DNA from: a virus
Lineage: Duplodnaviria > Caudoviricetes
IMG/VR virus record: IMGVR_UViG_3300015608_002119
Coordinates: 1-64,000 of that record
Reading direction: 5' to 3' (one strand)
DNA: 64,000 nt
Position numbers and translations under genes: made by a program. The first letter of the stretch is position 1. Each line of letters opens with the position of its first letter. Below the pieces are notes generated by a model, which worked only from the letters and a program-made list of their open reading frames with translations, was not told the origin of the DNA and did not search any database. This document shows positions 12,196 to 47,288 of this stretch, in pieces.

Positions 12196-14199
12196 ATGCA
12201 TCTCTCCTCCTCTCTTGGTTATGTTCCACTGATTAATCTCAGGGTGTTGAGCACTGATGCTGAGAGGGCACGTGGGTTCATGGGGTGGAAGGCGCCTCCA
12301 AACGACAAGTTCGGAATGTTGTTCAAACACGACCGTCCGAAAAGACAAAGCTACTGGATGAAAGACGTTCCATTTGACCTGGACGCCATAGGGTTTGACG
12401 AGAACAACCGGGCCGTTGAAGTGCTGCACCTGAAAGCCCACGACAAGACGCCTAGGAGGTTTATACGGGCCGTGCAAAACGTTGTTGAGGTCCGAGGCGG
12501 TTGGTGTCGAGAACATCGACTAGAAAAAGGCTGGGAGCTTCGTATGGGCATTGGGAACAATAGCGACATGACTGGTGTTGTTGACGAGGCCGCACGAACT
12601 CCGGAGTACGCATCATCAAAGAACATCGGTGCCTTGTGGGTGCCACCGGCTAGCCGCGACACGTCTGGCGCCGTGATATTGTGTTCGACCAATGCTGTTC
12701 AGAAGGACATGGGCGTGCATGGTGTGCTCAGACAGTCGAACATAGATCGCAGTGTTATTGTGGCCCAGGTCCGATTCATGATCGACCAGCACTACAACGA
12801 CCTATACCAAGCAAAGTACAGCTCGGCAACAAACAAGTTTGGTCCACTTGCTTATGAGATGTTACTGAACAAGCTGGCCAAGAACTACAACGGGTCTTGG
12901 CTGCACAGCGACAATCGTCTTTCGGCAGATGCCGCCAATGTGTGGGCCAAGTATTATGACCGGTCTGAGGCCGGTCAGGATATTGAACGTAAGTGGCTTG
13001 GTGATTGGGGCCTGATAAAAGCAGAGGACGCGTTTGACGCAATAGAAAATGACCTGCACGGGTCCGGGATTGATGTCGATGTGTCAACGGAGCAGGCATT
13101 CCTTACATTGCTCAAAAGGCTAAAAAACCACAACCTTGGCCCAAGGGACTTTGCTCATATGTGGGCTTATCGCCTGACGGCTGACAAGACAGAGATGTTT
13201 GCGCCGCTCTACCAGATCGGATCAAACATGGTCAATGATATCATCACGGCACAAGAGACTAGGCCCATCACTCGCAAGGAAGTTCTGGATATGTTTATGA
13301 CTGGCACGCTTGGCCACTTCTCAAGACTGTATGAAGACATGCCGCCAAAAGGCGACGTATCGTTGGCTGGAGTGTTGTATGCCGAAGCAGCCAGGACGTC
13401 GTTTGAGGCTGTGCACAATGAGATGGCCATACTGTTCACGTATGACAATCCCGCCGAAGACATAACAGTGACTCTTGTGTCTGTTGATGAGGTGGACGAT
13501 TTCATCTCTGTTGTGCGCAGCAAACCAAAGAATGCACGTCGTCTGACGGACTTGAAATGGTTGTTTGCCAACAAGGCCATTATAGGCTCAATCACGGCTA
13601 GACGCCGTCAAACAGACTTGTACGCGATTGATGCAACGGCAGCGACAGACAAGTATGGTCCGCTGCTATATGACCTGCTGATGGGGGCAATTTATCCGGC
13701 GTATCTAAGATCAGACACCAGACTTACGGCAGGGAGCCGAAACGTTTGGAACCAGATGTTCAGGCGCGATGATGTAGAGCGCGAATGGCTTGGTAACATA
13801 TCCAGCGTAATCGACATCAAGGAAACAATGCCTGCCGTGTTAAATGGCTGGGGGGCGTCTGCACGTGTTGCAGCCAGGGAATATGAGGAGAACCACCTGG
13901 ACTCCGAAACGGTTGAGAGTGGCGATGAGGCTTACAACAACTTCGTAGACTTCGTGCAGCGGCTATATCGAGTCAGCAAGGCCGATGGTGATAACATTGG
14001 CCCGTTCTTCGCTTATAGAAAGAAGCCAGGAAAGACAGAGCTTGGTGACTTCTCCAAGTTGTGGCGTCGAGGGATTGACATGGTGGATGAGCTGGCCAAG
14101 CTCTACGGCGTAACCAACAAGGATATACTCGACAAGGTCGACGAAGCAGGCCAGCTGCACTTCAACAACCTGTATATACCTCAGATCCGTAACACATGA
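12196..14199 (+). CDS. DUF192 domain followed by two tandem GNAT-like domains
   Basis: RARGFMG..GMLF..YWMKDVPFDLD..VVEVRGG; two GPLxYx..LxSDxRL....NVW repeats. Confidence 0.7.
   Translation: MHLSSSLGYVPLINLRVLSTDAERARGFMGWKAPPNDKFGMLFKHDRPKRQSYWMKDVPFDLDAIGFDENNRAVEVLHLKAHDKTPRRFIRAVQNVVEVRGGWCREHRLEKGWELRMGIGNNSDMTGVVDEAARTPEYASSKNIGALWVPPASRDTSGAVILCSTNAVQKDMGVHGVLRQSNIDRSVIVAQVRFMIDQHYNDLYQAKYSSATNKFGPLAYEMLLNKLAKNYNGSWLHSDNRLSADAANVWAKYYDRSEAGQDIERKWLGDWGLIKAEDAFDAIENDLHGSGIDVDVSTEQAFLTLLKRLKNHNLGPRDFAHMWAYRLTADKTEMFAPLYQIGSNMVNDIITAQETRPITRKEVLDMFMTGTLGHFSRLYEDMPPKGDVSLAGVLYAEAARTSFEAVHNEMAILFTYDNPAEDITVTLVSVDEVDDFISVVRSKPKNARRLTDLKWLFANKAIIGSITARRRQTDLYAIDATAATDKYGPLLYDLLMGAIYPAYLRSDTRLTAGSRNVWNQMFRRDDVEREWLGNISSVIDIKETMPAVLNGWGASARVAAREYEENHLDSETVESGDEAYNNFVDFVQRLYRVSKADGDNIGPFFAYRKKPGKTELGDFSKLWRRGIDMVDELAKLYGVTNKDILDKVDEAGQLHFNNLYIPQIRNT
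12200..12230 (-). repeat. AGTGGAACATAACCAAGA repeat with purine tail, copy 1
   Basis: 18-nt exact match to 29916-29933 (-) and 46661-46678 (+). Confidence 0.85.
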
Positions 14200-14228
14200 A
14201 ACTTGGCTACTTAGACCAATAAATCAAC

Positions 14229-15521
14229 ATGAAGAAAGCAACAATGACGTCAACACCATCATTCACCACTCTAACAAAACTGTTGTTTGAGCAAGAAATA
14301 GACCTCATGGCCGGTGCAACTCATTTGTCTGATGAGCAGGTTGCCGGTATCAATCGATCACTGGCCAAACTGGGAATTGCGCCTTTGGCCACATCTGTCC
14401 CCGCCGCTGAACTGGAAAACGAACTGGCTCCGGTCACGGAGGCAGGCTATAAGATACCCGGACGGGCGAACTCTAAAGACGTTTCGATCGCCCCGGAAAC
14501 GATCGAGCTAGCAAGGAAGTTCTACAAGGCTGGTAAGCAAGGCGAGAACTGGTATTACGACGCCGCCAAGACGCTTCAGGAGGGATTTGATGACGAGCAG
14601 GAGCTTGCCCTGTTTTCTCTTTTGCTGGCCGCAACGTCAGTGCAGACCGAGATCTACAGCAACTTCATTGAGGCCGGGCTTCTGTTTAACGCGATTATGT
14701 CCGACATGAAGAACCAGCCAGAGCTGCTCATGCGGTTTGTTGATGATCCAAAGGCCGCGGCGATGGATACAAAGACCGCCATGGCTAGCCAGTTCGCTTC
14801 ACTGGAGCTCTACAAGCAAGCCGCCGCAGCCAAGATCATTAACCTTCCTGCGAAATTTGGCAACGTATCTCGCGCCATCTCACTGATGTTCAACAACAGG
14901 CTCGATGCCAATACCGTCGTCAACATGATATCAAACTCTGTTGACCTTGACAGGAAGGGCAACTTCGACGCTAGATCACCATTCTTCCGAAAGCTGAAGA
15001 TCGCCAACTACGCGCTGACCCTACTCGATCCAGAATATGCCTCTACTGACAACAACTGGTTCAACGTAGTCGTTGACACCTGGATGATCAGGGTGTTTTA
15101 TCCGGGCAAGAACCCTGCCGAGGTGAAAAACCTACTTGGTAGCGAGCGAGCATATGCGGAAGTTGCGAGGGTTACCGCAGAGCTGGCGAACGAAGCGGGT
15201 GTGTCTCCTCATGCAATGCAGGCTGCGATCTGGCTTGGGATCAAGCGTGAAAAGGAAGGCGACCTTGGTGGTGTAACGGACTACGTGACAGCCATTAGGA
15301 AGTTGGGAGAGGATTACGCTTACCTGTGGAATGGTATCTCAAAGGAAACGGTCAAGCTGCGCGACGTAATTCGGAAGATCGATGTCGGTACGGCAAAGCA
15401 AGCCCTAAACGACATCAGGGCCACCAACATCCGTAACGTTATTAAGCGTCAGACGGCAGCGCGGCGGGCTGCCAAGGCGGCGGCTTCTTCTAGCACCACT
15501 GGTGAAACAACCGATATCTGA
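14229..15521 (+). CDS. Putative HhH DNA-glycosylase-like phage domain protein
   Basis: NWY..A, LAATS....SN, KIANY, VVVDTWMIR, P.AMQAAIW; leader LTKLLFEQ; TACTTA at 14208. Confidence 0.5.
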   Translation: MKKATMTSTPSFTTLTKLLFEQEIDLMAGATHLSDEQVAGINRSLAKLGIAPLATSVPAAELENELAPVTEAGYKIPGRANSKDVSIAPETIELARKFYKAGKQGENWYYDAAKTLQEGFDDEQELALFSLLLAATSVQTEIYSNFIEAGLLFNAIMSDMKNQPELLMRFVDDPKAAAMDTKTAMASQFASLELYKQAAAAKIINLPAKFGNVSRAISLMFNNRLDANTVVNMISNSVDLDRKGNFDARSPFFRKLKIANYALTLLDPEYASTDNNWFNVVVDTWMIRVFYPGKNPAEVKNLLGSERAYAEVARVTAELANEAGVSPHAMQAAIWLGIKREKEGDLGGVTDYVTAIRKLGEDYAYLWNGISKETVKLRDVIRKIDVGTAKQALNDIRATNIRNVIKRQTAARRAAKAAASSSTTGETTDI

Positions 15522-15530
15522 TCGTTGGTG

Positions 15531-15908
15531 CTACACCAACGACCCGTCGCGGCTGTCCTTGCCGTGAAGGTTTGGCGAGTCGGTCTTCACGTCAGACTCT
15601 TCATCTTCTAGCCCATCCCACAACCCAAGCATTGCAGGTCCATCGAAGTCTGGCTTGTGCATGCCTTCCGTCTTGAGTGAGGCCGTCTTGACCTTCCTGT
15701 TGGCGTCTCGTTTGCCCCAAAAGCCTTCCAGGCCCTTTTTAGACGCCCGCAAACCACCAGATCCGAGCGGAGCCGTATAACCAACAACGTTGCCAGCAGA
15801 GAGGGCGTTATATTCGTCCAGGGCCGCATCCTCGTCGCTGGTGATGTCTGAGACATCACTAAACAGAACTTGCTCCAGGATCCCAGCGTGTTTTGAACGA
15901 TTGGCCAT
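15531..15908 (-). CDS. Small putative head-internal protein
   Basis: TAGTTA upstream (15923-15928, minus strand); LDEYNALSAGNVVGYTAPLG. Confidence 0.55.
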   Translation of the reverse strand: MANRSKHAGILEQVLFSDVSDITSDEDAALDEYNALSAGNVVGYTAPLGSGGLRASKKGLEGFWGKRDANRKVKTASLKTEGMHKPDFDGPAMLGLWDGLEDEESDVKTDSPNLHGKDSRDGSLV

Positions 15909-15939
15909 ATATGAACCAACCCTAACTATTCCAAACACC

Positions 15940-16569
15940 ATGCAGGATAAAGCACATATAGCGATAGGCACACTGCTGTTCACTGAGAAACTAGAGCTTG
16001 TCAACTGGGATGAATACAAACGACTCGTTGCCGATGCATATGATAAAGCGCCCGAGTATGACGAACGCGCTGTGCCAGCATATCAAGCCATGTTGTCGGC
16101 ATGCGACCGGTTCTTCAAAATGATTGGTTCAAAGGTGAAGGTGGAGTTTGTTGACGGAGATCCGTATACGTCCCAGCAGCAAATGAAACAGGAAGTGGCA
16201 GCTACAAAAGTTCTGAAGGTGATGAAAGATTTTAGTGATCACCCGCTGTTTACCAAAGAACAGAATTGGAAATTCAGAGCCGTGCATGATTGGTTTACAC
16301 ACATCTTAACCAACCAGCCGTTCACACTAGAAGGTGAACTAAAGGCATACAACACGCACCTTAAGATGTTCCCACCAGCTTCATATCCAGCGCTGTTTAC
16401 CGAGATAGTTGGCCAAGTGTGTTATCAGACATCACACGGCAGTTTTCCAACACAAAAGGTTTGTGTGCTGGATGGGTTTGATTACAAGAATCTAGGCCAC
16501 GTAGAAGGACACACGATCCAAAACAAACAACTTATGAGAAACGACGCGTCCACTAACGCAACCGGTTAA
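15940..16569 (+). CDS. Metal-binding (zincin-like variant) polyvalent-type domain
   Basis: NWKFRAVHDWFTH...GE..AY..H...TEIVGQ; leader TLLFTEK. Confidence 0.55.
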   Translation: MQDKAHIAIGTLLFTEKLELVNWDEYKRLVADAYDKAPEYDERAVPAYQAMLSACDRFFKMIGSKVKVEFVDGDPYTSQQQMKQEVAATKVLKVMKDFSDHPLFTKEQNWKFRAVHDWFTHILTNQPFTLEGELKAYNTHLKMFPPASYPALFTEIVGQVCYQTSHGSFPTQKVCVLDGFDYKNLGHVEGHTIQNKQLMRNDASTNATG

Positions 16570-17179
16570 ATGTCGACTCAACTAACCGCTCAGAGCGAGT
16601 GCTGGCCTTGTATTCCATGAACACGAACGGCCGACCTTTAACGCGACTATACGCTTGAGCGATCGTGTCCGGGCTGAACGCCCCAAGTGCTACCGTTGAA
16701 CCATCGACCGTAAAGTACAACGTCACTTTGTTTGCGGTTTCCTTGCCAGCAAAAATACCAGCGTCCTGGTTGTATCTCACCAGCAGCTCTCGGAACAGGC
16801 CAAAGTCAATTTCAGGCACGAATAGCGTTGGTTCTGTGGTATCGATCAGCTGATCTTTCGGGCAGTCATCATACGGAACACCGACCACTTGGCACTCTTG
16901 CCAGTGACCTTCAAGGTTAAAGAACCCGAGCCCACGTGATCTTAATGTCGACTTGAGCTCTAAAAGGTCTGACTTGTTCTTTGCTGTAGAATTGCTAGCG
17001 CGCCATGACGTAAAGATTGCGAAGTTAGCGGCGCCACTGCGCATGGACATATAATGTTGCCATACGCGAGACAGGCTGGCCTCGTGCAGCTGTTTTCTAT
17101 TGCCACCTTGTTCTCTTGCGGCAAGCACATCAAGGAATGGAATAATCGATGAGAGCTTTGACTTTGGCATTGTGTTCAT
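16553..17179 (-). CDS. DUF3293-like phage protein
   Basis: LHEASLSRVWQH, FTSWR, LEGHWQE, EPTLFV, YNQD; TACTTA box at 17185-17190 (minus strand). Confidence 0.55.
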   Translation of the reverse strand: MNTMPKSKLSSIIPFLDVLAAREQGGNRKQLHEASLSRVWQHYMSMRSGAANFAIFTSWRASNSTAKNKSDLLELKSTLRSRGLGFFNLEGHWQECQVVGVPYDDCPKDQLIDTTEPTLFVPEIDFGLFRELLVRYNQDAGIFAGKETANKVTLYFTVDGSTVALGAFSPDTIAQAYSRVKGRPFVFMEYKASTRSERLVESTFNRLR

Positions 17180-17183
17180 GAGC

Positions 17184-17729: not shown

Positions 17730-17759
17730 GCCGTGTAAATAGGTTTGGTGTTTGCGAGC

Positions 17760-22797: not shown

Positions 22798-23829
22798 CTA
22801 CTCCGACAAGGTCATCAATCTCTTGAGCTGAGTGAATGAACGATCGATACCCGCATCAACCGGAATATCCACCGCGGCAAACACCTTGATATAGTCAAGC
22901 CTGTTGCACACCTTGTTGTTGTCGTGCTCGTCGATCTTGTAGTTGATCTTGGCAATCTGGTTTGCCGCTAGACTTGACGCGTCCAGGTACATCAGCTTCC
23001 AGTTGCGTTCGATAATGTCCGCGGACGACTTGATGCTCTCGTAGCACTTCGGAACACGGCCGCTAAGGCCCCTAGCCGCCCGTTCTGCGGCCTCAAACAA
23101 CCAGGACGTATCCAAGTCCACGTCGTCACGTTTCAGGTCCTGAAATCGACTCGTAATCGTTTTGAACCCGATCCCGTCAACACCGTCCAGATTATCCGAC
23201 GGATCACCAACAACAGCGCGCGCCAGTGTGATGTTTCGTGGGTGTGCGGCAAAGTTTTCCAACACCCAACCGGCGTCTATGATGATCTTGCGTGCAGGAT
23301 CATATATTCTGACCGTGTCATCTTCTAGCAGCTGGTAGAAGTCCTTGTCGCTTGACATAACGAACTTGGTTCGCCGTTTGCCCTCCAACATCTCTGACCG
23401 GTACTTCTGCTTCACAATATAGGCAATCACATCATCTGCTTCCGTGTCCGGGACATAAACCTGACACACGGGCGTATGGCTCAAAGCCTTCGCGCACAGA
23501 GACAACTGGAAGATCTTGTTGCTCTCGTCGGAGGAAGCCTTGTACTTACCGTCCTTCCGATACATCTCATTGATCTTCTTGTTTGTTGATCGGTTGGCTT
23601 TATAGCCTGGGAATATGTGCTTCCTCCTCTGAGATGGTCCGCCTTGTTCCCACACCACAAACAGTTTCTCTGGCTTTAGCAGCTCTGTCGCTGCTCCAAT
23701 TGCCTTGATAAACCCGGTCGCGCCTCCAACAAGTTGTCCACCAGCATTAACCGCTTCGGAGACTGCAAAGTGACGCATGAACACGTTAAGCCCGTCAACC
23801 ACCAAGATACTGTTTTGTATTGCCATCAT
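22798..23829 (-). CDS. 5'-3' exonuclease / T4 RNase H-like flap nuclease
   Basis: VDGLN, YKANR, EADD, SSDKDFYQL, GDPSDNLDGV.GIG.KT. Confidence 0.92.
   Translation of the reverse strand: MMAIQNSILVVDGLNVFMRHFAVSEAVNAGGQLVGGATGFIKAIGAATELLKPEKLFVVWEQGGPSQRRKHIFPGYKANRSTNKKINEMYRKDGKYKASSDESNKIFQLSLCAKALSHTPVCQVYVPDTEADDVIAYIVKQKYRSEMLEGKRRTKFVMSSDKDFYQLLEDDTVRIYDPARKIIIDAGWVLENFAAHPRNITLARAVVGDPSDNLDGVDGIGFKTITSRFQDLKRDDVDLDTSWLFEAAERAARGLSGRVPKCYESIKSSADIIERNWKLMYLDASSLAANQIAKINYKIDEHDNNKVCNRLDYIKVFAAVDIPVDAGIDRSFTQLKRLMTLSE
23065..23158. repeat. Bipartite ~90-bp dispersed element, copy B (inside exonuclease gene)
   Basis: AAGGCCCCTAGCCGCCCGTTCT; right arm CGTTTCAGGTCCTGAAATCGACT at +64. Confidence 0.75.
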
Positions 23830-29302: not shown

Positions 29303-29782
29303 ATGGCAAAATACACCAACAGTGAAGGCTTCTACGGCAACCAGGGCGCTGGCGTGTTGTTCTTTGCACGGTCAACTTGCCGGTTTCTGTTGCTTTTAAG
29401 GTCTGCTTGGGTCAATGAGCCGCATACATGGTGCACCCCAGGTGGAAAAGTAGACGCTGGCGAAACGCCGCTTCAAGCAGCTAAGCGAGAAGTACAAGAA
29501 GAGTCCGGCGCGACTATATCAAACGAAGGCAACCTGCAACTGCTCTACGTGTTCAGGCCGCCTAACGGTACGTTTGAGTACCACAACTACATTGGCATAG
29601 TAGAGAACGAGTTTACGCCGACACTGTCGGACAGGGAGAGCGACGACTACAAGTGGTTGACGTTCGAGCAGCTGCTAGCACTTCCATCAAAACACTTTGG
29701 AATAGAAGACCTGCTATCCGTGGCTGGCAGCAGGCTGTCAAAACTTGTAGATGATTGTGTTAGAAAGGATATAGGCCAATAA
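29303..29782 (+). CDS. NUDIX hydrolase
   Basis: GGKVDAGETPLQAAKREVQEESG. Confidence 0.93.
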   Translation: MAKYTNSEGFYGNQGAGVLFFARSTCRFLLLLRSAWVNEPHTWCTPGGKVDAGETPLQAAKREVQEESGATISNEGNLQLLYVFRPPNGTFEYHNYIGIVENEFTPTLSDRESDDYKWLTFEQLLALPSKHFGIEDLLSVAGSRLSKLVDDCVRKDIGQ

Positions 29783-29899: not shown

Positions 29900-29945
29900 C
29901 CCCCCTTCCCCCTCTTCTTGGTTATGTTCCACTAGCTCGTCCGTA
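29900..29945 (-). repeat. AGTGGAACATAACCAAGA repeat, copy 2 (intergenic)
   Basis: 33 of 34 nt match to 46649-46682, followed by G-runs. Confidence 0.88.
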
Positions 29946-29957
29946 AGGTAAGAAACC

Positions 29958-30509
29958 ATGGCAAAACAAGACCTAAAGTCACTGATCTCGGAGGAAATAG
30001 ACCTGTTTCTAGGTAAAATCATCGCATGCTCGGCTAAAGCTACGGTAAACATAGGCCATTTATCCGAACAGCAACAGCCTCCACCAGCGCCGGGCATGCT
30101 CGATCAGGCTGCCGGGGATGCCGCCTCGATGCAGCAACCAGCTGATATTACCGGTGATTCGCCAGCCAGTGATGATAAAGAGGAAAGTCAGGACGAGGAT
30201 AGCCCTGACATGTCGCCCGAGGAGCGGGCCAAGGAGCTCGCCACAAAGTCGGACGTTGACATCAGGAAGGAGTTGATCGCCGACTTGCAGGGTCCCAAAA
30301 GAGGCTCGGCAAAGGCCCTAATCGATTATGTAGCGGCCTCCGATGATCAGCCACCCAATCTGGTGCGTGGGGTCAAAGAAACGGAACAGGTGGCTTATAC
30401 GGGCCGCTCCTCGACGACGGGCACAACAAAATCAACGTCCGTGTCTCCGCAGCTTAAAGAGGCGCTGAAAACCTATTTAACACTGTCAAAAGCCAACGAG
30501 ACAAAATGA
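29958..30509 (+). CDS. Acidic low-complexity putative head protein
   Basis: LISEE, LSEQ, LKEA motifs. Confidence 0.6.
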   Translation: MAKQDLKSLISEEIDLFLGKIIACSAKATVNIGHLSEQQQPPPAPGMLDQAAGDAASMQQPADITGDSPASDDKEESQDEDSPDMSPEERAKELATKSDVDIRKELIADLQGPKRGSAKALIDYVAASDDQPPNLVRGVKETEQVAYTGRSSTTGTTKSTSVSPQLKEALKTYLTLSKANETK

Positions 30510-37600: not shown

Positions 37601-38831
37601 GTTGCAAACCGGGTTCAACAACGCCTCCCAGGCATCTCGAACCGGAACAGACCGGATTGTACGTAACGTCAATGCCGCAACCCAAGCAACCCAGACTCTG
37701 GCCGCGGCGGGACAACAGATGAGAGATGTCCAGGCTGGGAACATCAACAACTCTGGGGCATTGGTTGAGATGTTTGGCCAGATGCGAGAGGTTGTTGCAG
37801 GGCTGGTCACATTCGCAACGGACACGTTCCGCAACATGACACCAAGCCAAGCCGGGGTTGTGCGAACCGGCGTTGAGACAGTGGCGGCGATGCTGAATGC
37901 TGTGAAGACAGTACCGGAGATAGTGGCAGCCGTTGGCAGCGGCCCAAACGTCAATCCGGCCGAGATGGTGAACAGACTTGTTGGTCCAAACGGCCTGCTC
38001 TCATATCTTTTTATCACACAGGGACCAAACGCGCACCAGGAAGCGCGTTGGTTGTTGGACATGTTCAAGGCCGACGGAGTAATAGACCGATTCGTTGCTC
38101 AATTGCCTACGCGGTTTGAGCGAACAATCAACAAAGTAAAGACCTTGTTCGAAACTGTCAAGTCCATGTCTGATGCGGCAACCAGTCTCAGCTCTGCCGC
38201 ACAAACAGGAGCTGGCGGCAATGTATACAACAACGTGATTAGTCCGCTGGTTGGATCTAGCGGCTTGTTGTCGTATCTCTTTGACGAAAGCAAGCATCGT
38301 GAGGCTTCAGACTTCAAGAGCATGTTCAAGTCGGGTGGGCTGATTCAGTCATTTGCCGACTCTATGCCGGACAGCTATAGGCGTGTTACTACGAAGCTGG
38401 CATCGATAGGTGCGATCGTGAGAAGTACCGTTGAGGCTTCCGGAGAGCTGTCGACTGGCAACACCAGGATCAGCTCCATGCTGACTGGTTTGAATCTACA
38501 GTCGGCCATGCAATCGTTCCGCACAAACTTCACAGAACAGATATCGGCGTTCGTTTCTGAGTATAACAGAATATCAATAGAACTTGCCAACCTGAACGTG
38601 CATGCAATCGATGCATCACTAGACCGTGTTGGCGAAGTGTTGGGTGCTGACCGGACCGTAAGGCTGGAGTCTGCTGCGGCTAACGTTACGGTGAACGTGA
38701 ACGTCAAACTTGCAGCGGCAGACATTGAGCAGGCCCTGTTTGAGTATTCCAACTCCCCTCGCGCACGCAACAGGCCCGGAACACTGAGACCAACGTCGTT
38801 CTACCCCAGGACTGAACCAGTAACGCAGTAA
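34626..38831 (+). CDS. Tape measure protein
   Basis: 1401 aa, helical, Ala/Gly-rich with hydrophobic segments, upstream of baseplate genes. Confidence 0.8.
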   Translation: MATNTTPTVDNLKIAQGLVQAMSQMADILDKQTESLKTQLQLSEAIKKVQELTTDDIRNRSFNGEALNEALEKSLSESESLAESMTNVGKTVEKSTGLVNTFGKVASGVFGTVVVTLSEMTNGFRAGFNISKNFFGNIWRMGRTAVGVLVDIAKVVAGMPGAFLEFMQGAATGGVDAYRVALEELREEFGNLATGTSLSVRSMNESMRNFSATGLSFGRVFGYGREGLAAALKEFQKIATEMGPIFNRFAADSRGMSREIVVLAKGANITGEGFRAMQLAADNGGESIRVAMNGMIRGLAMAEREFGIASKEIGKDVNAMLKDLGSFGVMSRDTMIKTSVYARRLGLSIEALKKVMDKYLNFEDAAQSAAGMAEAFNMNIDAMRMMREQDPTRRLDMLRQAFFRTGRNIDQMSIAERRHLANLSGMSEEETRIAFAQRNRALSGAQLDAQMRRSQRQQMTQVQALQQVAKSIKLLVMSGSPLQGSFFDIFIRGFKQGIMWSREFRGAVRAIQQSMRVIFMSGREVGRMFAHLFPGFKEFFGGVRDLFNPRRYRALMTQVKAQFREFFTSLSDPNRRDSALGTFMRNMRTNFLNYFTQGSPAARRTAEGFKTFFKTIGILAIQGARYLLVQLRDGTKKALDAVRAVLLNPRGIRQGLRELFAPGTNVAGTMGSQLTSTFQEVFQYAASQLGPVLGQLWDTVVGFISDRRVQQALEDKLGPPLRKAGQFVGKYFIAAMFGPAVIMAAVRGAGAMIATALGKALFPVAKSTFASFSLTSTAVAAVLASVVALTVGFDQFPDKTAKAMKRVDEVVARLSNNIGLYMGKAYKAIVDGATAVGFLVAGYLFDPARWLAAVGRLTAAVVPALMSIGSTVITGIGNLVAGFLEGAGMQEAANDLRASIRWVSDGVHEFVGDLRGSITTIRTSWDIVRADLLRLGGWLNDHNPFMSLINSMRDVWNTAQRIFGHSVNTVVAADLAKIERPAQRAQETISNALQTGFNNASQASRTGTDRIVRNVNAATQATQTLAAAGQQMRDVQAGNINNSGALVEMFGQMREVVAGLVTFATDTFRNMTPSQAGVVRTGVETVAAMLNAVKTVPEIVAAVGSGPNVNPAEMVNRLVGPNGLLSYLFITQGPNAHQEARWLLDMFKADGVIDRFVAQLPTRFERTINKVKTLFETVKSMSDAATSLSSAAQTGAGGNVYNNVISPLVGSSGLLSYLFDESKHREASDFKSMFKSGGLIQSFADSMPDSYRRVTTKLASIGAIVRSTVEASGELSTGNTRISSMLTGLNLQSAMQSFRTNFTEQISAFVSEYNRISIELANLNVHAIDASLDRVGEVLGADRTVRLESAAANVTVNVNVKLAAADIEQALFEYSNSPRARNRPGTLRPTSFYPRTEPVTQ

Positions 38832-38860: not shown

Positions 38861-39094
38861 ATGACCGATTGCAACCACAGCACCACCAACGGTGATCAGA
38901 ATGAGACTGATAGCAACGCGACAATCTCAGTCAGCGAGGCCGTCCTGCGCTCGTCGGTCATGACCGACATCCTGAGCCATTTATCAGACGAGGATAAGAT
39001 CGCTGCCTCCATGTTTATTGAGAGGCTGCTCGGAGACTTTGACAGCATTCTCACTGCCTATAAGGCAGTCGACACGTCCAACGCCAAACGATAA
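38861..39094 (+). CDS. Hypothetical protein
   Basis: ORF in the tail block. Confidence 0.5.
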   Translation: MTDCNHSTTNGDQNETDSNATISVSEAVLRSSVMTDILSHLSDEDKIAASMFIERLLGDFDSILTAYKAVDTSNAKR

Positions 39095-39114
39095 TCGGCT
39101 AGTTAGCTGGTACG

Positions 39115-42100
39115 ATGAGCAGGCCGTCACCAGTTGTTAACCCAGCGTTGCTGACCGACCCAGGTGATTCTAGCTCTGGGCGGCGCTTAACGATATACTT
39201 TCAGAAAGGGCCAGACGTTCCAGTAGCGCCGGAAGTAAATGCCGGAGTCGATGTTGCGGATGCTATCAAGGCTGCTTACGTTGATTATACGGCCACGCAA
39301 GCGGTCGCCGCCAACACAGCCATACCAATTGTTGCCGGTGACGACAGACAGCCCGTATATGTCAGTGCAGAGCCGGATCTGAACACGAGCGGACTAACGA
39401 GCGAGGCAGTAAACGCTGCGCTGGCTCCGGCCACCATGTTCAATCCAAGACGTTTTCAGCTCGTTGGGGTTGGATCTGGTGACAGGGTTAACTTCGGCTC
39501 TAGCAAGAACGAGCTTGGTGTAAACGACCCCGTTAAAAACCAAAAGCTACAAAACATTACGAATTATGTTCGTAATGTTGAGTTGCGGCAAGATAGCGCA
39601 CACTCCAAGATCGTCGACTCCGAAAAACTTGAATCTTCTGGGTATAACGACGCAAACAAGTACCTGCGCAGCTCGGACACAACTGGCCCGGCAGACCAAG
39701 TCGGCAGAACTCTAAGGCTTGGATCGGTTTTCTATAACAAGCTCGGAGCATACGTGTCATCGAGCTACACTGGGCAACCAATCCTAGATGGGTCCACGGT
39801 AAAGGCTGCCAACCTAACCGTAACCGACCTTGAGAACATCGCCATCAACATGATGTTCGATGCAGTTCAGGGTGATGCTGGTTTAGACTTCAAGTATACT
39901 GGCACTTCTTCTGATGACATCGAAGCCGAAGCTAGGATGGCCATACCATCGCCGCAGCGGCTAGGCAAGAAAGTGCCAATGGGCAGGTTCTCAGCGGCCA
40001 GGGAGATCAAGAAGCTATACGGAATTGAAAAACGCTCCGAGTCAAACATCATCGACAGTAGCGATTACCTGGAGTCACACGGTAGCTTCTACAACCAGTT
40101 CTCGCAGTTCGATTCGCTTATACCACTTGGTCAGATTGCCGTGTCCGTCGCGATGGTGCTTGGGTTTAACGCACTGCTTAGCTCCATTGGCGCAATAATT
40201 CGTGCGGCCAGCTCCAACAACCCGGAGGTCATCACATCATTTAACGAGCTGTCGGTGGATGAACGTAGGTCGTTGCTTGGTGTGGTGTCAGTATCAAAGG
40301 CGGCATTTCCCACATCGGAGGTTGGTGGCCTTGATATTCTTACGCAGACTCTAGGAATAACATCTCTGTTCTCGCCAACGCTACACGATTCAGACAGCTG
40401 CTTACTCGTAGGGATTGAGGAGTTCTTTGGCTTTAGTTTTGGCACTGGACTATCTGGTAGAGCTACGCCGCCGTCACAGCAAGCAGCCAGAGGAAGCCTT
40501 AAGGTGTTGACGGAGAGCGGGCGTCTGAACGTCATACTTCGCGAGATCCTTCGCAGTGGCATAAGCATTGTTGAGAGCGCTCAAGCGGACTTCACTGGCG
40601 GCGCGTCATTGGCTGGTATCAGCAACTTGGTTCGCAGAATAAAAAGCACCAAGATGCTTAAGTTCGTCGACCTGTTGATGCAGATTGGTGATCGCATCAA
40701 GATGGAAGACGACCTAAAGACAGATGCTAGTCTGAACGGCAACCCATCATTCAACGTGTCTGCCAGCTCTAATGTGTCATATGTTGATAGCCTACCGGAC
40801 CAGCGCGCATTCTACGCAGCCAAGTCACGGCTGAGTGATGGTAGAATGGCATGGGGAGCATCGACGGCCACGTCGATGCTGTTGCCGGTGGATTCTTTGT
40901 TGATGTCCGGACTAAGCGAGTCAATGGGAGGCGCCCGGATGGGTTACCCATTGCCATCGCGAGCGCAAGACCCAGGCTTTCTGACAAGCAACCAAAGGTC
41001 TGCTGCCATACGAAACGGTAGATTGGATGCTGAGTCCGTTGCAAAGTTTGAACGCGAGCTCGAACAAGACTATATGCCGTTTTACTTTCAGGACTTGCGC
41101 ACCAATGAGATGATTTCATTTCATGCGTTCTTGGAAGATGCCTCAGAAGACTTCAATGTCGATTACAACAGCACTGATGGATATGGGCGTATCGACAAGG
41201 TGCAAATCTATAAAGGCACTACAAGAACGGTAAACGTTTCGTTCAAGATGGTAGCTACAAACGAAGATGACATGGCGGCGATGTGGTATAAGCTGAACCG
41301 TCTGGCCATGTTGATCTATCCACAATGGACAGGTGGCCGTGAAGTCAACGTAGGGGACATCAAGTTCACCCAGCCGTACTCGCAGATTCCAGGTGCTACT
41401 CCAGTTGTCCGCATGCGCCTGGGTGACCTGTTTAAGTCGAACTATAGCAAAATGGCGGTTGCTAGGCTGTTTGGTATATCAACACGCCCAGACTACAACG
41501 TCACGTCCAGGCAGCCAAATCAGCCGCGCACCGCCGGAGCACAGACGGAGAACACCTCACAACCAGCATCACAAGGTAACTCTGGGCAGAACACACTGGC
41601 GTTTCGTGTTGCGGCGTTGCAAGACCCACAAGTGCAGTTCACGTCCAACCAGAGCAACAGTTCGGCCGAGCCAAGGACCATAAATCCAACCGACGTGTTC
41701 ACCGGCCCAGATCCACGTGTTTACTTGAACATTCGGCCGATTGCCAGCCAGCTGCGCAGGTTTAGAGCTGGACCATCGAGGCGACAGATCACTGCAAACA
41801 ACAGCTCTGCGCGTATCCTGGCGAGGTTCGTTGATGTCAGCGCGACATCGAACAAAGCAAACTTTCAATTAATAAGCCTTGTCACGCCTGGACCTAATGG
41901 TAACCAGCGCTCAGAAGTCATAACGGGGCCGTCCGGCGCCGAGCCCACGATCTCATTGTCGTTGAGTGCTGGGTTTCGCGGCATGATCGATGTATCAAAG
42001 ACTGTGAGCGAGATGCAAAGGTCAGATACGTCTGCACAGTCCGAAAGCCAGCGTACAAGCAACGACACGGCAGATGGTACCGTGGGCATCGGCGCCCTCA

Positions 42101-42483
42101 CGCCAGAGATATTCTACGACGATGACAAAAATCCGATCTTAAAGTCGTTCAAGTCGACAGCTGGGCGTGGGCTCGCTGGCGTCGTAACGTCTTTCAAGGT
42201 TGATTATAGCGAGGCAAAGGGAAACTGGGGAACCGACGCAAGTCGTCTAAACAGGGCGCCTATGTTTATGACAGTCCAAGTCGGGCTGGCGGTGATTCAT
42301 GATGCACCGCTCGGTCTTGACGCTAACGGCATGATGCTAGCACCAATTTGGCCCGTGGGCCACTATGCGAACTTCTATGCGCCAACCGGTCGGGACGTAC
42401 GCGAACAGTCACCAAACTATCGCGGCAGCTTGCTATCCAGGTTTGATCCAGAAGTCAATCCATACTTCAATCGGAAGAGGTAG
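39115..42483 (+). CDS. Large baseplate / tail-tube initiator-like protein
   Basis: PFYFQDLRT..ISFHAFL....GYGRIDKVQIY.GTTRTVNVSF; TAGTTA at 39100. Confidence 0.65.
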   Translation: MSRPSPVVNPALLTDPGDSSSGRRLTIYFQKGPDVPVAPEVNAGVDVADAIKAAYVDYTATQAVAANTAIPIVAGDDRQPVYVSAEPDLNTSGLTSEAVNAALAPATMFNPRRFQLVGVGSGDRVNFGSSKNELGVNDPVKNQKLQNITNYVRNVELRQDSAHSKIVDSEKLESSGYNDANKYLRSSDTTGPADQVGRTLRLGSVFYNKLGAYVSSSYTGQPILDGSTVKAANLTVTDLENIAINMMFDAVQGDAGLDFKYTGTSSDDIEAEARMAIPSPQRLGKKVPMGRFSAAREIKKLYGIEKRSESNIIDSSDYLESHGSFYNQFSQFDSLIPLGQIAVSVAMVLGFNALLSSIGAIIRAASSNNPEVITSFNELSVDERRSLLGVVSVSKAAFPTSEVGGLDILTQTLGITSLFSPTLHDSDSCLLVGIEEFFGFSFGTGLSGRATPPSQQAARGSLKVLTESGRLNVILREILRSGISIVESAQADFTGGASLAGISNLVRRIKSTKMLKFVDLLMQIGDRIKMEDDLKTDASLNGNPSFNVSASSNVSYVDSLPDQRAFYAAKSRLSDGRMAWGASTATSMLLPVDSLLMSGLSESMGGARMGYPLPSRAQDPGFLTSNQRSAAIRNGRLDAESVAKFERELEQDYMPFYFQDLRTNEMISFHAFLEDASEDFNVDYNSTDGYGRIDKVQIYKGTTRTVNVSFKMVATNEDDMAAMWYKLNRLAMLIYPQWTGGREVNVGDIKFTQPYSQIPGATPVVRMRLGDLFKSNYSKMAVARLFGISTRPDYNVTSRQPNQPRTAGAQTENTSQPASQGNSGQNTLAFRVAALQDPQVQFTSNQSNSSAEPRTINPTDVFTGPDPRVYLNIRPIASQLRRFRAGPSRRQITANNSSARILARFVDVSATSNKANFQLISLVTPGPNGNQRSEVITGPSGAEPTISLSLSAGFRGMIDVSKTVSEMQRSDTSAQSESQRTSNDTADGTVGIGALTPEIFYDDDKNPILKSFKSTAGRGLAGVVTSFKVDYSEAKGNWGTDASRLNRAPMFMTVQVGLAVIHDAPLGLDANGMMLAPIWPVGHYANFYAPTGRDVREQSPNYRGSLLSRFDPEVNPYFNRKR

Positions 42484-42492
42484 TTGTCGACA

Positions 42493-42789
42493 ATGAGCGC
42501 AGTAAGCAGATATACGGTTACTCCTAGAATTGCGTTCGGCAAGCAGTACGGCACCAGCAGCACCATCGCCAACATTCGCAGCGCCATCAAGGAAGGCAAA
42601 ATACAAACCACCACGATCTTTCTGAAAGAGGCGATAAGGCTTGACGTGTTGGCCGGTCAGTATTACAACGATGGTCGCTATGGGTGGCTGATTGCTGCGG
42701 CATCTGAGATAGGCTGGATGCCACAAACGCCGCCAAACACAAGAATTGTGATCCCAGACCTGGAGCAGTCACTGAGGTATCTCGGCTGA
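42493..42789 (+). CDS. LysM/gp53-like baseplate wedge protein
   Basis: RLDVLAGQYYNDGRYGWLIAAAS..IVIP. Confidence 0.7.
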   Translation: MSAVSRYTVTPRIAFGKQYGTSSTIANIRSAIKEGKIQTTTIFLKEAIRLDVLAGQYYNDGRYGWLIAAASEIGWMPQTPPNTRIVIPDLEQSLRYLG

Positions 42790-42796
42790 AATCCTC

Positions 42797-45700
42797 ATGC
42801 TAAGCATCGACAGCAAGCTAACACGCGAACAAAAGTCAGCTCGACTTGGCAGGATCAAGTCCGACTTGGCAAGGTATTTTGGGTTCGCAACACCCGAAAA
42901 CATCGCAGAGGCGTTGGCTTTTGCACAGGCCGTAGGCCAAACGGAGGCAGCCCAAGTACCGCTGACACCGACTACTGCCAACGGCCCTCAAGTTGTTAGG
43001 AGCCGTCTTGGTATACGCGCAGACCCAGAGCTGCAAGATGTGTTTGAGCTGCTGCTGGACTCCGGCGAAGGTTCTCGATTTGCGATTACTGGAGCTGGGT
43101 CGATTTTAGAGCTCTTGGCAGCCAAGGTACGCGATGCTCGCGGTGACCGGAACAAGCTCATAAAGCTGGCAAGGTGTGCCAAGCTGCACTACTGCAACAC
43201 AGTCAGGACCCCGGTGGCGGCATCGGTGGCCGACAGCAGCGCCGCGTTGGGTACGAGAGTCCTGTACGATAACCTGGGAGTGATTGGGTTTGGGAACAGC
43301 GCCGATGAACAAGCGGCCAAGCAGCGGCTGAGCGTGTTTCGGGTAGAACACCCAATGATCGTACCGGGAAACAAGAACGCCGAGCTTTTGACGGTGTTCT
43401 TCAACGCGTTTCCGGCGATTGAACTCACCAGAGCAATACCGGTCCTGAACCTCAAGGTTTACTCGTCACGGCAGGTGTTCCAGAACGGCAAGCTCGGCGC
43501 AATATCGCTGCAAAAGTTCCTTGAGGGCGCCAGGACAGTCTCCCCAGATAATGCTACCGACATGCCAGTGCGCGCAATCGGGTTAGCAAACCAAGTCACA
43601 GCATCCCTGTTCGGTCAAACCGACCAGGAGTTTAGCAGCTACTCACTGACAGGATTAGAGCTGTTCACTGCGCCACAGACGCTCGTTAACCCATCTGCTA
43701 ACAAACAACAAGGAAACTACCTTGCCCCAGTAATTGATCCGTTCAGGCCACTTGCCTCAATCAAGAACTTCGATGTTGAGGTTCGTAGTGCTGTTGGTCT
43801 TATATCAACCAAGACCGCCAAGTTGGAAATGACCCTGCATGACCGCAGCAGACTTGGGGAGTTCGCTGACTTTGTCAAGCCTGATCGGTATGGCAGCTCG
43901 TTTGTTGAAGTAGAGTATGGATGGTCACACCCAGATGGCTTGGATGTTGGCAACCCATATGCTGACCTGCTAAATCTTACGCGTGTCAAGGAGCAATATA
44001 ACATCGTCAACTCGTCCTTCAACTTTGATGAGGTTGGTCAAGTAAACATCACCCTGAACTTGGCTACTCGCGGATCATCCGAGATGACAGAGTTGTCTAT
44101 TACGGGGAACCAGCCGCAGGTTAGAGAATATATTCGTGCCGTCGAGAGACTGAGCCGTGAGATCAACGCGTTGTCCGATCAGGTGTTTGGGACACGGCAG
44201 AGATCAGGCAACAACACCAGTAGTGAATCAAACTCAAACAGCTCGCACCGCAGAGAGATTCGTGGGCAACAAATGCTAACAGCGGCCGGTGATGCAACCA
44301 GCTACCTGATACTGACGCCTGAACTGTTTACGTCATTGGCTCAACTAAGGCGAACGTTAACTCAACGCATCAGCGGCGACAGTTCTCCGGCCGTTAGAAG
44401 ACAGGCGCAGCAGCTTAAGGCACGACTAGATGAGCTTGTAGGCACAAGCAGCAACTCCGTGTCGCCAAACTCCAGAATCGGTATTATTCAAAGCACAATT
44501 AACAACGACGTTAGCACGGCGATATCGATGATCAACCGAGACACGGATGGCCAGCCGTCGTCCGACCCGCTTGCAAGAGACATCTTCTTGCGCGAAATGC
44601 CATCTGTTCCACGTTCGATGCTGTTGGAGGCCAATGGAACACTAAAGCGTCGACAAAGCGGTATACGAAGAGACGCCAGCACAGCAAACGGCCAAGTTGT
44701 TGCCACACCAGCACAGACACGCTCGGCTTCTGGGAGAGTCTCCAGTAGAGGAATAGTATCAGATGGGTCTGTGATATCACTAGGGTCGCTTATCATGGCG
44801 TTGGTTGCGAAGCCGCTTGCTAAAGTGAAAAACGCGGACGGGTTCAAGTTTGATGAGGTGCAAACGTACTTCTACAACTTCAATACCAAAGCTGGCCCGA
44901 TGAGCCATTGCAACATTAGCCAGTTTCCAGTTTACACGGACTTCTTTGCGCGTGAATACTCTCGGCTCAGGCTTGAAAACTCTAGCCGCACTGTCGACTT
45001 GTCAGTAACCGAGTTCGTCTCGTTTATTGCCAGCAGGATGATAGATGACCCAATGAATCCAGCCTATGGAATCAATGGCCTGTACCGGCCATCGACGACT
45101 TCTGATGAGCTGGTGGCGAGAACAAACGGCGACGAGTTCAACAGGAACATGCAGCGTATTATGCGCGCAGCCAACATCGGCCAGTCACCCGACTTTGTGA
45201 TGCCGCAAATCACCCTGGACATCGAGGCCGTCCCACATGCGACCGACGAGACCAAGTCTATTCTGAAGTTGCACATATACGACAAGGCATGCTCGCCAAA
45301 CAACACATTGCGTGAGCTGCTATCACTATCGACCGACAATCTCCTGTCAAACCTGTCTGCATACCCAGGAGATGACCAGTCACGGATAGCACAAGAGGAA
45401 CAGAACAGGGCCGCAGGAGCTACTGGCGTGCCTCGTCATGTCCTGCGTGACAACTGGCGAGAGATACACGCCGCAATAACAGAACACGCTCGCGCCACCG
45501 GGTTGATAGAGGCCGTACAAGGAACCAATGGCTCTCAGTATCGATTTGTTGGCGGTCCAAAGCGGCTCAAAGAACTTGTCATGCAGTATGTGCCGCACAT
45601 CATCTACGGGTGTATGGGATCGACTGTCAAGGCAGCAAACCTGTCGACAATGCAAAACGCGTTGCTTGCCACAATAAACATGCAAAGGAGCCTGAACGGC

Positions 45701-46033
45701 GATCCGGTTGATGCAAACGGCGAGCAGCCCGGTGGAGTTCCGCTGAGCGTGTACCCGGTCGAGCTGTCAGTCACCGCACTCGGTTGTCCGTTTGTCCGAT
45801 ATAGCCAAGAACTGTTCATGGACTTCAACACCAACACGACCGCTGACAACATCTATTACGTCACGGGCCTTAGTCATAAGATTGAGCCTGGAACATTTGA
45901 GACAACAGTCAAGCTCACCGCCACGGACGCGTTCGGCCAATACAGAAACTTGATAGGCCAACTTAACAATGCACAAACAACTCTAAATGCAATTGTTAGT
46001 TCAAACACCAATAACAGAAATCAACAAAACTAA
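42797..46033 (+). CDS. Baseplate hub-like structural protein
   Basis: VEYGWSHP; C-terminal YYVTGLSHKIEPG.FETTVKL. Confidence 0.6.
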   Translation: MLSIDSKLTREQKSARLGRIKSDLARYFGFATPENIAEALAFAQAVGQTEAAQVPLTPTTANGPQVVRSRLGIRADPELQDVFELLLDSGEGSRFAITGAGSILELLAAKVRDARGDRNKLIKLARCAKLHYCNTVRTPVAASVADSSAALGTRVLYDNLGVIGFGNSADEQAAKQRLSVFRVEHPMIVPGNKNAELLTVFFNAFPAIELTRAIPVLNLKVYSSRQVFQNGKLGAISLQKFLEGARTVSPDNATDMPVRAIGLANQVTASLFGQTDQEFSSYSLTGLELFTAPQTLVNPSANKQQGNYLAPVIDPFRPLASIKNFDVEVRSAVGLISTKTAKLEMTLHDRSRLGEFADFVKPDRYGSSFVEVEYGWSHPDGLDVGNPYADLLNLTRVKEQYNIVNSSFNFDEVGQVNITLNLATRGSSEMTELSITGNQPQVREYIRAVERLSREINALSDQVFGTRQRSGNNTSSESNSNSSHRREIRGQQMLTAAGDATSYLILTPELFTSLAQLRRTLTQRISGDSSPAVRRQAQQLKARLDELVGTSSNSVSPNSRIGIIQSTINNDVSTAISMINRDTDGQPSSDPLARDIFLREMPSVPRSMLLEANGTLKRRQSGIRRDASTANGQVVATPAQTRSASGRVSSRGIVSDGSVISLGSLIMALVAKPLAKVKNADGFKFDEVQTYFYNFNTKAGPMSHCNISQFPVYTDFFAREYSRLRLENSSRTVDLSVTEFVSFIASRMIDDPMNPAYGINGLYRPSTTSDELVARTNGDEFNRNMQRIMRAANIGQSPDFVMPQITLDIEAVPHATDETKSILKLHIYDKACSPNNTLRELLSLSTDNLLSNLSAYPGDDQSRIAQEEQNRAAGATGVPRHVLRDNWREIHAAITEHARATGLIEAVQGTNGSQYRFVGGPKRLKELVMQYVPHIIYGCMGSTVKAANLSTMQNALLATINMQRSLNGDPVDANGEQPGGVPLSVYPVELSVTALGCPFVRYSQELFMDFNTNTTADNIYYVTGLSHKIEPGTFETTVKLTATDAFGQYRNLIGQLNNAQTTLNAIVSSNTNNRNQQN

Positions 46034-46091
46034 GCCAGACCAACCTGTTCACTTGTCATTGTCGTGCCCCCCGTGCTCAGATTAAGTCACG

Positions 46092-47288
46092 ATGGTCAAC
46101 GACAATGACACCATACGGAAGCTCTACCTCCTACCCGACCCGCCAGCACCCCCTAGATCGTTCCAGAATGCTTTTAAGTCGATCCGGACGGACTTGGTGG
46201 GCTCTCGGGTGCCTTGGCAATTTGCGCTCCCGTATAAGGCGTATAGGAGCTTCTGTGAGGAACAGGAGAAATACCAGACCAATTTCTTGTCCAAGCTCGA
46301 CCTGTCCTACTATCAGAACGTGTACTTGCCGACCGAGGAGCTGTTCTCGTTTCTCAGACCGGCAAGAATAACGAGTGATATGGGCTTGTTCGAGAGGCTG
46401 GCCGAGGAAGACACGGCTGGCCATGTGCTTACGTTCCGCCCAGGGCCAGACGGGTTTACTCGGCACGTGCCGGACTATTCGCGCATCAAGTCTGTAACGG
46501 GCCGACTTACTACGAGCTCGACCGGTCCAAGGATCCTTAATCTACAGAAAGACCATAGAAAGATTCTGGTGTCTCGTTTTCACCAAGATACCGGTTTGGT
46601 GGTCGCTTTGGACTTTAAGTCATTGGAACCAAAGGTACTTTTACATGCTACGGACCAGCTAGTGGAACATAACCAAGAAGAGAGAGGGGAGGGGGAAGAA
46701 AACATCGACATATACCAGTCGTTGCTTGATAGAGTGCTAGAGAACAGGCCAGACTTGCAAACACTGCTCGGTCGAGACAACATGAAGCAGCTCGTTGTGT
46801 CGGAACTTTATGGGGCTGGACTGGCACGTCTCCAGGCGATGTTGCCTAAATCCTTGCCGCCGCGTGACGTTGGTTGGTTGGCTGCGCTGGTAAAGGAGTA
46901 TTTTCGTTCAGATTTGCTGTTGGAGCGTCTGACAAAGGAGTGGGTTAACAACGATTGCAAGTATATTCTGAACGGGTACGGCAGACCGGTGGCCACAGTC
47001 TCCAACAACTTGTTGATCAACCATTATGTTCAAAGCACCGCTGTTGATATTGCAATGATTGGTTTCCTATCAATGGTTAAATACCTTGAGGCAATCGACG
47101 CTTTGGACCGCGTTGTCCCGATTTATCTTGTACACGATGCGATAGTCTTTGATGTCCGAGCCGATTCCTTGCCTTTGGTTTATTCACTGGCTAAGATCGG
47201 CGTTAGCGACATTCCGTCGTTCGCAGGCTCGTCCAAACCTATCACCTCACTGGCACTTAAAGTCGACAGGCTGTTTGCTGGGCCGTAA
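46092..47288 (+). CDS. Compact family-A DNA polymerase (no exonuclease domains)
   Basis: TGRL, DFKSLEPKV (motif A), R...K.......YG (motif B), NHYVQSTAVD, VHDAI (motif C). Confidence 0.8.
   Translation: MVNDNDTIRKLYLLPDPPAPPRSFQNAFKSIRTDLVGSRVPWQFALPYKAYRSFCEEQEKYQTNFLSKLDLSYYQNVYLPTEELFSFLRPARITSDMGLFERLAEEDTAGHVLTFRPGPDGFTRHVPDYSRIKSVTGRLTTSSTGPRILNLQKDHRKILVSRFHQDTGLVVALDFKSLEPKVLLHATDQLVEHNQEERGEGEENIDIYQSLLDRVLENRPDLQTLLGRDNMKQLVVSELYGAGLARLQAMLPKSLPPRDVGWLAALVKEYFRSDLLLERLTKEWVNNDCKYILNGYGRPVATVSNNLLINHYVQSTAVDIAMIGFLSMVKYLEAIDALDRVVPIYLVHDAIVFDVRADSLPLVYSLAKIGVSDIPSFAGSSKPITSLALKVDRLFAGP
46649..46695 (+). repeat. AGTGGAACATAACCAAGA repeat, copy 3 (inside the polymerase gene)
   Basis: Near-identical to the reverse complement of 29900-29945. 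Confidence 0.88.

Follow-up and report, generated by a model that had tools for sequence, protein, structure and literature searches.

We report on an 18-bp repeat, AGTGGAACATAACCAAGA, in the first 64 kb (here called the window) of a 163,485-bp viral contig (IMG/VR record IMGVR_UViG_3300015608_002119, hereafter G000), which is 44% complete by CheckV and thereby implies a phage of roughly 370 kb. As judged from comparison with related sequences, the repeat is a real functional element under strong selection and is neither mobile nor periodic. The element comprises a 15-nucleotide (nt) core, GTGGAACA(T/C)AACCAA, followed by a purine tract of ~20 nt. In our preferred reading, to which we assign a probability of roughly 0.45, the repeat would constitute a lineage-specific class of promoters with a purine-rich initial transcript.

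An invariant core followed by a purine tract

The exact 18-mer occurs in the window at 12213-12230 (-), 29916-29933 (-) and 46661-46678 (+), with 0.04 occurrences expected by chance (shuffles), and no match beyond these three was found in the window when up to three mismatches were allowed. Copy 1 (12202-12230, minus strand) combines the 18-mer with the purine tract GAGGAGGAGAG (12202-12212) and points leftward at gene X (11804-12190, minus strand), which encodes 128 amino acids (aa) of no known family. Copy 2 (29900-29945, minus strand) is intergenic and comprises an upstream GAGCT, the 18-mer and the purine tract AGAGGGGGAAGGGGGG. Copy 3 (46649-46699, plus strand) consists of the motif and a 30-nt purine tract, lying in sense orientation inside the family-A DNA polymerase gene (46092-47288), where the encoded stretch ...TDQLVEHNQEERGEGE... 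directly follows motif A. Between copies 2 and 3, 33 of 34 nt are identical, and over 46 nt the match is 87%. A preliminary description of the window had listed the three copies with their positions and strands, the GA/G-rich tract behind each, the 34-nt match and the three contexts (start of a DUF192 gene, intergenic, polymerase loop after motif A), all of which were reproduced here. It had also placed a partial copy some 17 kb further on. The 10-mer in question, GAACATAACC at 63645-63654 (+), is not a member of the family; its flanks are unmatched, the purine tail is absent and the match is probably due to chance.

Copies 4-7, numbered by position, lie in the rest of the contig. Further copies outside the window stand at 78877 (-), 100837 (-) and 150077 (+), and in the copy at 106393 (-) the last base of the 18-mer differs and the purine tail is absent. 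The 15-mer GTGGAACATAACCAA has seven exact copies in G000, and a scan of the contig for the same 15-mer with one or two mismatches returned none: copies are perfect or absent. The intervals from copy to copy (17.7, 16.7, 32.2, 22.0, 5.6 and 43.7 kb) rule out a 17-kb periodicity. The two steps of ~17 kb seen in the window are real, but they are not a property of the element; they resemble the corresponding first two steps of the relative G001 (16.9 and 18.9 kb), the motif-bearing genes and their order being shared.

The consensus from 30-47 non-redundant contexts of G000 and its relatives is [A/T]GTGGAACA[T/C]AACCAA[G/T/A]A, with a weak preference for GCT or TTA just upstream and a purine-rich run downstream. 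The purine tract belongs to the element. Six of the 14 purine runs in G000 with at least 14 nt and at least 5 G stand directly behind the motif, and in coding contexts the tract has a median length of ~20 nt at a purine content of at least 85%, a stretch of 10 nt being reached at 0.7% of random positions. Where the element lies antisense within genes, the encoded peptide varies (FFSSS, SGSSI, SFFPL) and the codons are always pyrimidine-rich. No inverted repeat was seen within the element, which upholds its description as a non-palindromic, polar site; a factor that reads it sequence-specifically is required. A literature search for the sequence returned nothing relevant.

Among IMG/VR records the exact 18-mer was found at 36 loci. 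About 17 of these are cyanophage pstS genes (L009, L010, L013, L017 and others), in which the 18-mer encodes ...GLGYVPLPEDL... and the purine tail is absent. They were rejected as family members, the context being unrelated as well; probably they represent one chance event multiplied by family conservation, and by our own estimate one independent chance match is expected in a collection of this size. The remaining IMG/VR loci, 49 loci recovered with a degenerate pattern and 15 metagenome loci all belong to one lineage of large phages, with G001 (260 kb), G002 (113 kb), G003 (241 kb), G004 (51 kb) and G005 (123 kb) carrying 2-12 copies each. A metagenome scan with a 25-nt subclade-specific pattern gave no match. 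A bacterial origin of the motif was dismissed, since the two matches in 185,579 bacterial species genomes are near our chance estimate of ~1.6. No cultured relatives were found by DNA or by polymerase protein, and RecA reaches at most 39% identity. The genome-wide survey thus yielded more copies on both strands (minus/plus 5/2 in G000 and 9/3 in the outgroup G006; 7/5 between the strands of G001) at ~1 site per 23-29 kb, or ~10-12 sites per ~300-kb genome, and the regular spacing proposed earlier did not hold.

Conservation at the DNA level and concerted variation

Two orthologue tests, based on sequences gathered independently of the motif, address the constraint on the element. Six polymerase loci share 35-37% identity with G000, and each of them has GTGGAACACAACCAA in the same place behind motif A. 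The G000 polymerase reads the motif as VEHNQEERGEGE (VEHNQEE), one frame over from the relatives; it has eight extra residues and is alone in keeping the perfect consensus. In the relatives the motif is read as SGTQP(K/R)E, with TAA changed to CAA; in their frame the consensus T would give a stop. In distant polymerases, which are without the motif, the loop is an ordinary one of similar length (e.g. AGGTPE), so that the comparison with an empty site, as proposed in the preliminary description, reveals no insertion. In the structural gene at 78359-79942 (527 aa), the motif is found at one and the same codon, with 0-2 mismatches, in 21 out of 21 orthologues at a minimum of 58% identity, compared with none of 56 orthologues at 54% identity or less; the two groups show no length difference.

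Far from being absent or unconserved in relatives, copies are kept at orthologous positions across genomes whose proteins are only 36-65% identical. Since the site is kept in different reading frames, on different strands and at orthologous positions, selection acts on the DNA and not on the protein; going by these alignments, purifying selection is at work at the DNA level on the element itself. The shared peptides VEHNQEE and LGYVPL were discarded as conserved features because the same DNA occurs in other frames and strands and in non-coding DNA.

The same comparisons bear on a miniature mobile element, a recent duplication or gene conversion as the agent that spread the 18-mer. Copies within one genome are identical, and copies 2 and 5 of G000 have ~75 nt in common, including the first codons of gene Y, as such an agent would predict. 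Motif-less orthologues are of equal length at the site, which indicates that the site arose in place and was held by selection, not inserted; no terminal inverted repeats or target-site duplications were seen at the copies (by eye), and the orthology of sites between such divergent genomes argues in the same direction. Mobility, which the preliminary description had offered as one option, is therefore very improbable. Mobilisation of copy 5 by a homing endonuclease was considered and dropped as well. The neighbouring gene with a TnsA-like PD-(D/E)xK nuclease fold (PF08722) is found at 100869-101330 in G000 (L005, 1533-1994, +) and at 245366-245851 in G006 (L231, 5366-5851, -), with 43% identity and in the same synteny. 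It immediately follows the 808/791-aa structural gene, has 'head closure' as the annotation of its best PHROG family, and looks like a conserved resident late gene and not like a homing endonuclease.

Only two outgroup genomes were compared: G006, a complete genome of 305 kb with terminal repeats (100% complete), and the more distant G007 (322 kb, 93% complete). The G000-type 15-mer is absent from G006 within one mismatch. Instead, a de novo k-mer count recovered 12 copies of a dispersed motif of its own, GTGGAACCTAACCA, followed by TAGAAGAG and more purines. The G006 polymerase carries GTGGAACCTTACCA at the orthologous site, in which the one base that deviates from the G006 consensus does away with an in-frame TAA; in G001, likewise, the polymerase copy is one base off its own consensus, with the same effect. 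The convergent copy between the 791/808-aa gene and the TnsA-like gene is orthologous in G000, G001, G005 and G006. All sites thus change together within a lineage, as predicted for a trans-acting, sequence-specific reader. The earlier suggestion of a protein-binding site is borne out as far as a polar cis-acting site, conservation at the DNA level and concerted variation are concerned; the specific roles are a separate matter. No motif of this kind was found in G007, which has other dispersed repeats. One of them is a ~23-nt element, GCAGGACCATCTTCTC(G/T)ATGAAG, with ~20 copies on both strands (L249-L265; e.g. 74-100, 48171-48260 and 54459-54830).

Promoter reading and its alternatives

Intergenic copies usually lie 11-63 nt before a start codon, the tract serving as ribosome-binding site. 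As ribosome-binding sites and start codons come right after them in many independent gene families, we read the element as a promoter class. Start-proximal copies precede gene X (in four genomes, divergent from the DUF192 gene), gene Y, gene Z, a 225-aa gene of G001 and, in G006, several genes including those for the Prim-Pol and a 376-aa protein. In divergent intergenic regions, most copies stand right at the start codon of the gene towards which they are directed (13-63 nt), with one G006 copy 163 nt away. Gene X opens a leftward operon to which thymidylate synthase (9808-10746) also belongs; the ATG of gene X follows the 18-mer by 22 nt, and homologues of the gene in relatives (110-117 aa) start 31-43 nt after the motif (by eye). 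Genes designated VKYQRILLKIIEEEIDRFL start 18-28 nt after a sense motif in eight or more relatives. The polymerase copy precedes an HD-domain gene, SSB and RecA; together with thymidylate synthase, these genes behind copies fit a replication and nucleotide-metabolism class. In G006, the copy at 173411 and a local island of plus-strand genes have flipped strand together, a strong intrinsic terminator is located ~30-44 nt upstream of the copy at 38675, one gene has three copies in tandem before it, and a GC hairpin followed by a T-run (by eye) precedes the Prim-Pol copy.

Under the promoter reading, a sequence-specific transcription factor would read the invariant block GTGGAACA(T/C)AACCAA. The block may be an extended element of the -10 type, in which TAACCA would be the -10 hexamer. 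RNA synthesis would begin a few bases into the purine tract and, before genes, the purine-rich 5' end of the transcript would provide the Shine-Dalgarno sequence. With TAACCA as -10, the base that differs between the G000/G001 and G006 cores would be -13 and the start would fall in the purine tract. The likeliest reader would be the host RNA polymerase with a phage RpoD-like sigma factor that has regions 2-3 and no -35-reading region 4.2. Intragenic and antisense copies would be internal or antisense promoters, some of which may double as R-loop origins like T4 oriF and oriG. A sigma factor of this kind (246-318 aa; RpoD-like, with regions 2 and 3, ending just after region 4.1) is encoded in G002 (L109, 1027-1983, -), G001 (L110, 1102-1881, -), G003 (L111, 1267-2154, +) and G006 (L217, 1135-1875, -), and G003 has a weak second sigma-like open reading frame (ORF; L112). 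Lacking the -35-binding helix-turn-helix, such a sigma would need a one-block promoter of the extended -10 type.

Promoters of the T7, T3 and SP6 type have a contiguous, near-invariant block of ~15-20 bp, with a purine start following it (GGGAGA in T7, GAAGAG in SP6). The element resembles these and phage sigma promoters in that a block of this size is repeated through the genome and in that the sequence shifts between related phages in step with the reader. As in T7 and SP6, purines directly follow, here GAAGAG or GAGAGG, often running into the ribosome-binding site. Unlike T7-type promoters, it occurs at ~1 copy per 25 kb, with about half of the copies intragenic or antisense, and its purine tract measures ~20 nt versus 6. 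A single-subunit RNA polymerase was also not found, even in the complete genome of the clade: PF00940 had no match in G000-G003, G005, G006 or G007, in a search whose control genomes held no positive example. No homologue of the RNA polymerase beta subunit was detected in the genomes tested, complete G006 included.

A bipartite sigma-70 promoter does not fit either. The consensus scan for -35 and -10 boxes was empty at the copies, and in the logo the core is not preceded by any conserved element. A different class is formed by this phage's nearly leaderless early promoters (TTGACT-N17-TAAGGT). They read (aat)CCCTTGACTCTC, a 17-nt spacer and (GA)TAAGGT, with the ATG 5-8 nt after the -10, and are found at 56054 and 26557 in the window and at ~11 more places in G000 141770-162839, clustered in the 141-163 kb region. 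The preliminary description had concluded that the repeat fits neither promoter class. It does differ from the early promoters, but we read it as a further promoter class, proximal to start codons in many gene families.

Several observations weigh against this reading. We infer both the transcription start at the sites and the identity of the reader protein, and this must be counted here. The sigma is also present in the motif-less G007 and was not found in the G000 fragment; co-occurrence of sigma and motif was therefore set aside as support, not being discriminating. About half of the copies have no co-oriented gene to serve: the one lying antisense in the structural gene, the one within a GroEL-like gene, the convergent one behind the 808-aa gene, and those at 53900, 180612 and 190782 of G001. 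The G000 copy at gene Y is inverted relative to all relatives, and among co-directional intergenic copies the ratio of sense to antisense is only about 6:2. A continuous invariant 15-nt block without weaker variants is unusual for a sigma-dependent promoter, and a 20-nt purine tract exceeds the need of a start site or a ribosome-binding site.

An alternative is replication initiation. Here the core would be read by the Prim-Pol or by a polymerase, and a purine-rich primer that this enzyme makes across the tract would persist as a stable rPu:dPy hybrid (R-loop), in the manner of a polypurine-tract primer, giving ~10-12 unidirectional origins per ~300-kb genome, and use as a ribosome-binding site would be opportunistic. 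We regard this as unlikely, but it would explain why position is kept regardless of gene orientation and coding frame, and why the ~20-nt purine tract is present even within genes. Three tandem copies before one G006 gene look like iterons, and the Prim-Pol occurs in the motif-bearing G000, G001, G003 and G006 and is absent from the motif-less G007 (a single comparison). The candidate reader in the window is the Prim-Pol gene at 249-1490 (+; PF09250), with the motif absent from the 248 nt of sequence available upstream of it; only in G006 does the motif adjoin the Prim-Pol gene, which counts against this reading. Further difficulties are that GC skew in G006 shows no feature at the sites and that start-codon coupling in many gene families is less directly explained. 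Nor are we aware of any primase that recognises a 15-nt site in double-stranded DNA and uses it at many dispersed places.

Phage T4 offers a parallel. Its oriF (uvsY) and oriG (34) combine a middle-mode promoter with a downstream unwinding element that forms an R-loop primer (PMC3016281), and the density of the element resembles T4's five to seven origins per 169 kb (PMC3016281). As in T4, a promoter-type signal with a downstream element occurs several times per genome and may serve the mRNA of the neighbouring gene or act only as an origin. The gene set is T4-like too: a RecA/UvsX-like protein, SSB and an RNase H-type 5'-3' exonuclease are encoded nearby, as is a DnaB-like helicase. In contrast, T4 origins share little sequence and have an A+T-rich downstream element, whereas here a common core precedes a G/A-rich polypurine tract. 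Primers made from polypurine tracts are used by retroelements, and G-rich R-loop elements by ColE1 and mitochondrial origins. In the same way, a purine-rich RNA made from a defined start onwards would give an RNA:DNA hybrid of unusual stability that could prime DNA synthesis; no reverse transcriptase is involved here, and the parallel is an analogy only. A more explicit variant, in which the core directs synthesis of polypurine RNA by the Prim-Pol or a specialised transcription complex and the RNase H-resistant hybrid primes leading strands, seems to us unlikely to the same degree. Promoter and origin are compatible functions, as T4 shows, and on our analysis the origin is the better explanation of the orientation-blind intragenic copies.

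If the element acted without starting any synthesis, it could be another polar DNA-protein site, such as a nick, a roadblock to transcription or replication, or a signal for packaging or recombination. In favour are its dispersed copies, high specificity, polarity and conserved positions, and a boundary or roadblock would fit the conserved convergent copy found where the 808-aa gene ends. The localized nick sites of T5, phiKMV-like phages and phage tf follow an equally strict consensus, and all lie on one strand (PMC3517423). They resemble the element in their short consensus, in their handful to 14 dispersed copies and in positions conserved among relatives. They differ in strand, the motif being on both, and they have neither a purine tract nor a link to start codons. 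A roadblock 11-30 nt before start codons, or in sense within the polymerase and GroEL-like genes, would harm expression, and none of these roles explains the purine tract. We consider such a site rather improbable.

Acting within transcripts, the motif and tract could be a translational operator or 5' leader, a site of processing, or a means of pairing between sense copies and the antisense copies that late mRNAs carry; we hold such a function at the RNA level to be improbable. Sense copies do stand directly 5' of ribosome-binding sites, and copies in both orientations within mRNAs could form ~35-nt duplexes. A TATTATA(A/G)AGA box stands immediately ahead of four G006 copies and could put the motif at an RNA 5' end, but the TATA(A/G)AGA box is no general promoter in G006; TATAAAGA or TATAGAGA, seen upstream of four G006 copies and tried as a general late promoter, was discarded as not being a general motif. 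The sharp-edged invariant core and the variable tract fit protein recognition better than base pairing. Antisense intragenic copies are as strictly conserved as sense copies, for which a leader or operator cannot account. No RNA secondary structure or covariation was found at the element, and the Rfam 15 covariance models gave no relevant match at E<=1 against ten motif-bearing loci.

Neighbouring genes, other repeats and meaning

The DUF192-domain ORF (12196-14199, plus strand) has its first 12 codons written over the antisense motif and tract. The 18-mer of copy 1 occupies codons 6-12 in antisense and, with the tract, codons 3-12 (LSSSLGYVPL); the same arrangement is found in G003, G001 and one further contig. 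Copy 2 lies between a NUDIX gene (ending at 29782) and gene Y (29958-30509, plus strand; 183 aa, N-terminus MAKQDLKSLISEEIDLFL), pointing away from gene Y and towards the 3' end of the NUDIX gene. Gene Y is assigned as a VKYQRILLKIIEEEIDRFL orthologue by N-terminal likeness; a BLAST-level homologue was found only in G003, where gene Y has a degenerate sense copy of the motif, and a peptide scan for close relatives returned none. The two large proteins encoded upstream of the polymerase (39115-42483 and 42797-46033) had no match in Pfam, PHROG or PDB. The lineage also encodes chaperone homologues, namely a DnaJ-like protein (window 3558-4592, -) and, in relatives, a GroEL-like protein (L058, 432-1472, -) whose gene harbours a sense copy of the motif.

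G000 contains further repeats. A second dispersed element of ~60-100 bp (...GGACGGGTTCCTG...CCCAGAACGGGCGTATAGGAGCT) is always on the plus strand, at 58227 in the window and at 68764, 123392, 141723, 149994 and 162476 of G000; the copy at 149994 precedes motif copy 7 by 84 nt. A direct repeat of 48 nt (83% identical) lies at 6294-6341 and 23047-23094, 16.75 kb apart; it contains AAGGCCCCTAGCCGCCCGTTCT and is unrelated to the motif. The contig ends in a tandem array of ~30 units of 15 nt (GGGAGCGAACCTG...; 162978-163480), which may be repetitive protein coding or an assembly-end repeat.

The uncultured giant phages of this clade (~300-370 kb) are widespread, being seen in dozens of contigs from IMG/VR and metagenomes, and the element is the first cis-acting signal to be defined for them; the list of sites together with the lineage variant allows assays to be designed without a cultured host. 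Genes are bent to keep the signal. The polymerase reads the motif in two frames in different lineages and avoids the in-frame stop by a different single base change per lineage or by a frame shift, while the structural gene retains pyrimidine-only codons, which keep the tract intact on the opposite strand. Codes at the DNA and protein levels overlap here, in a clear example from nature. That about half of the sites have no gene to serve suggests a second role, as origin or in antisense control. If the sites were indeed primer sites, this would be a giant phage with about a dozen hard-wired, co-evolving origins, placed even in its polymerase and structural genes.

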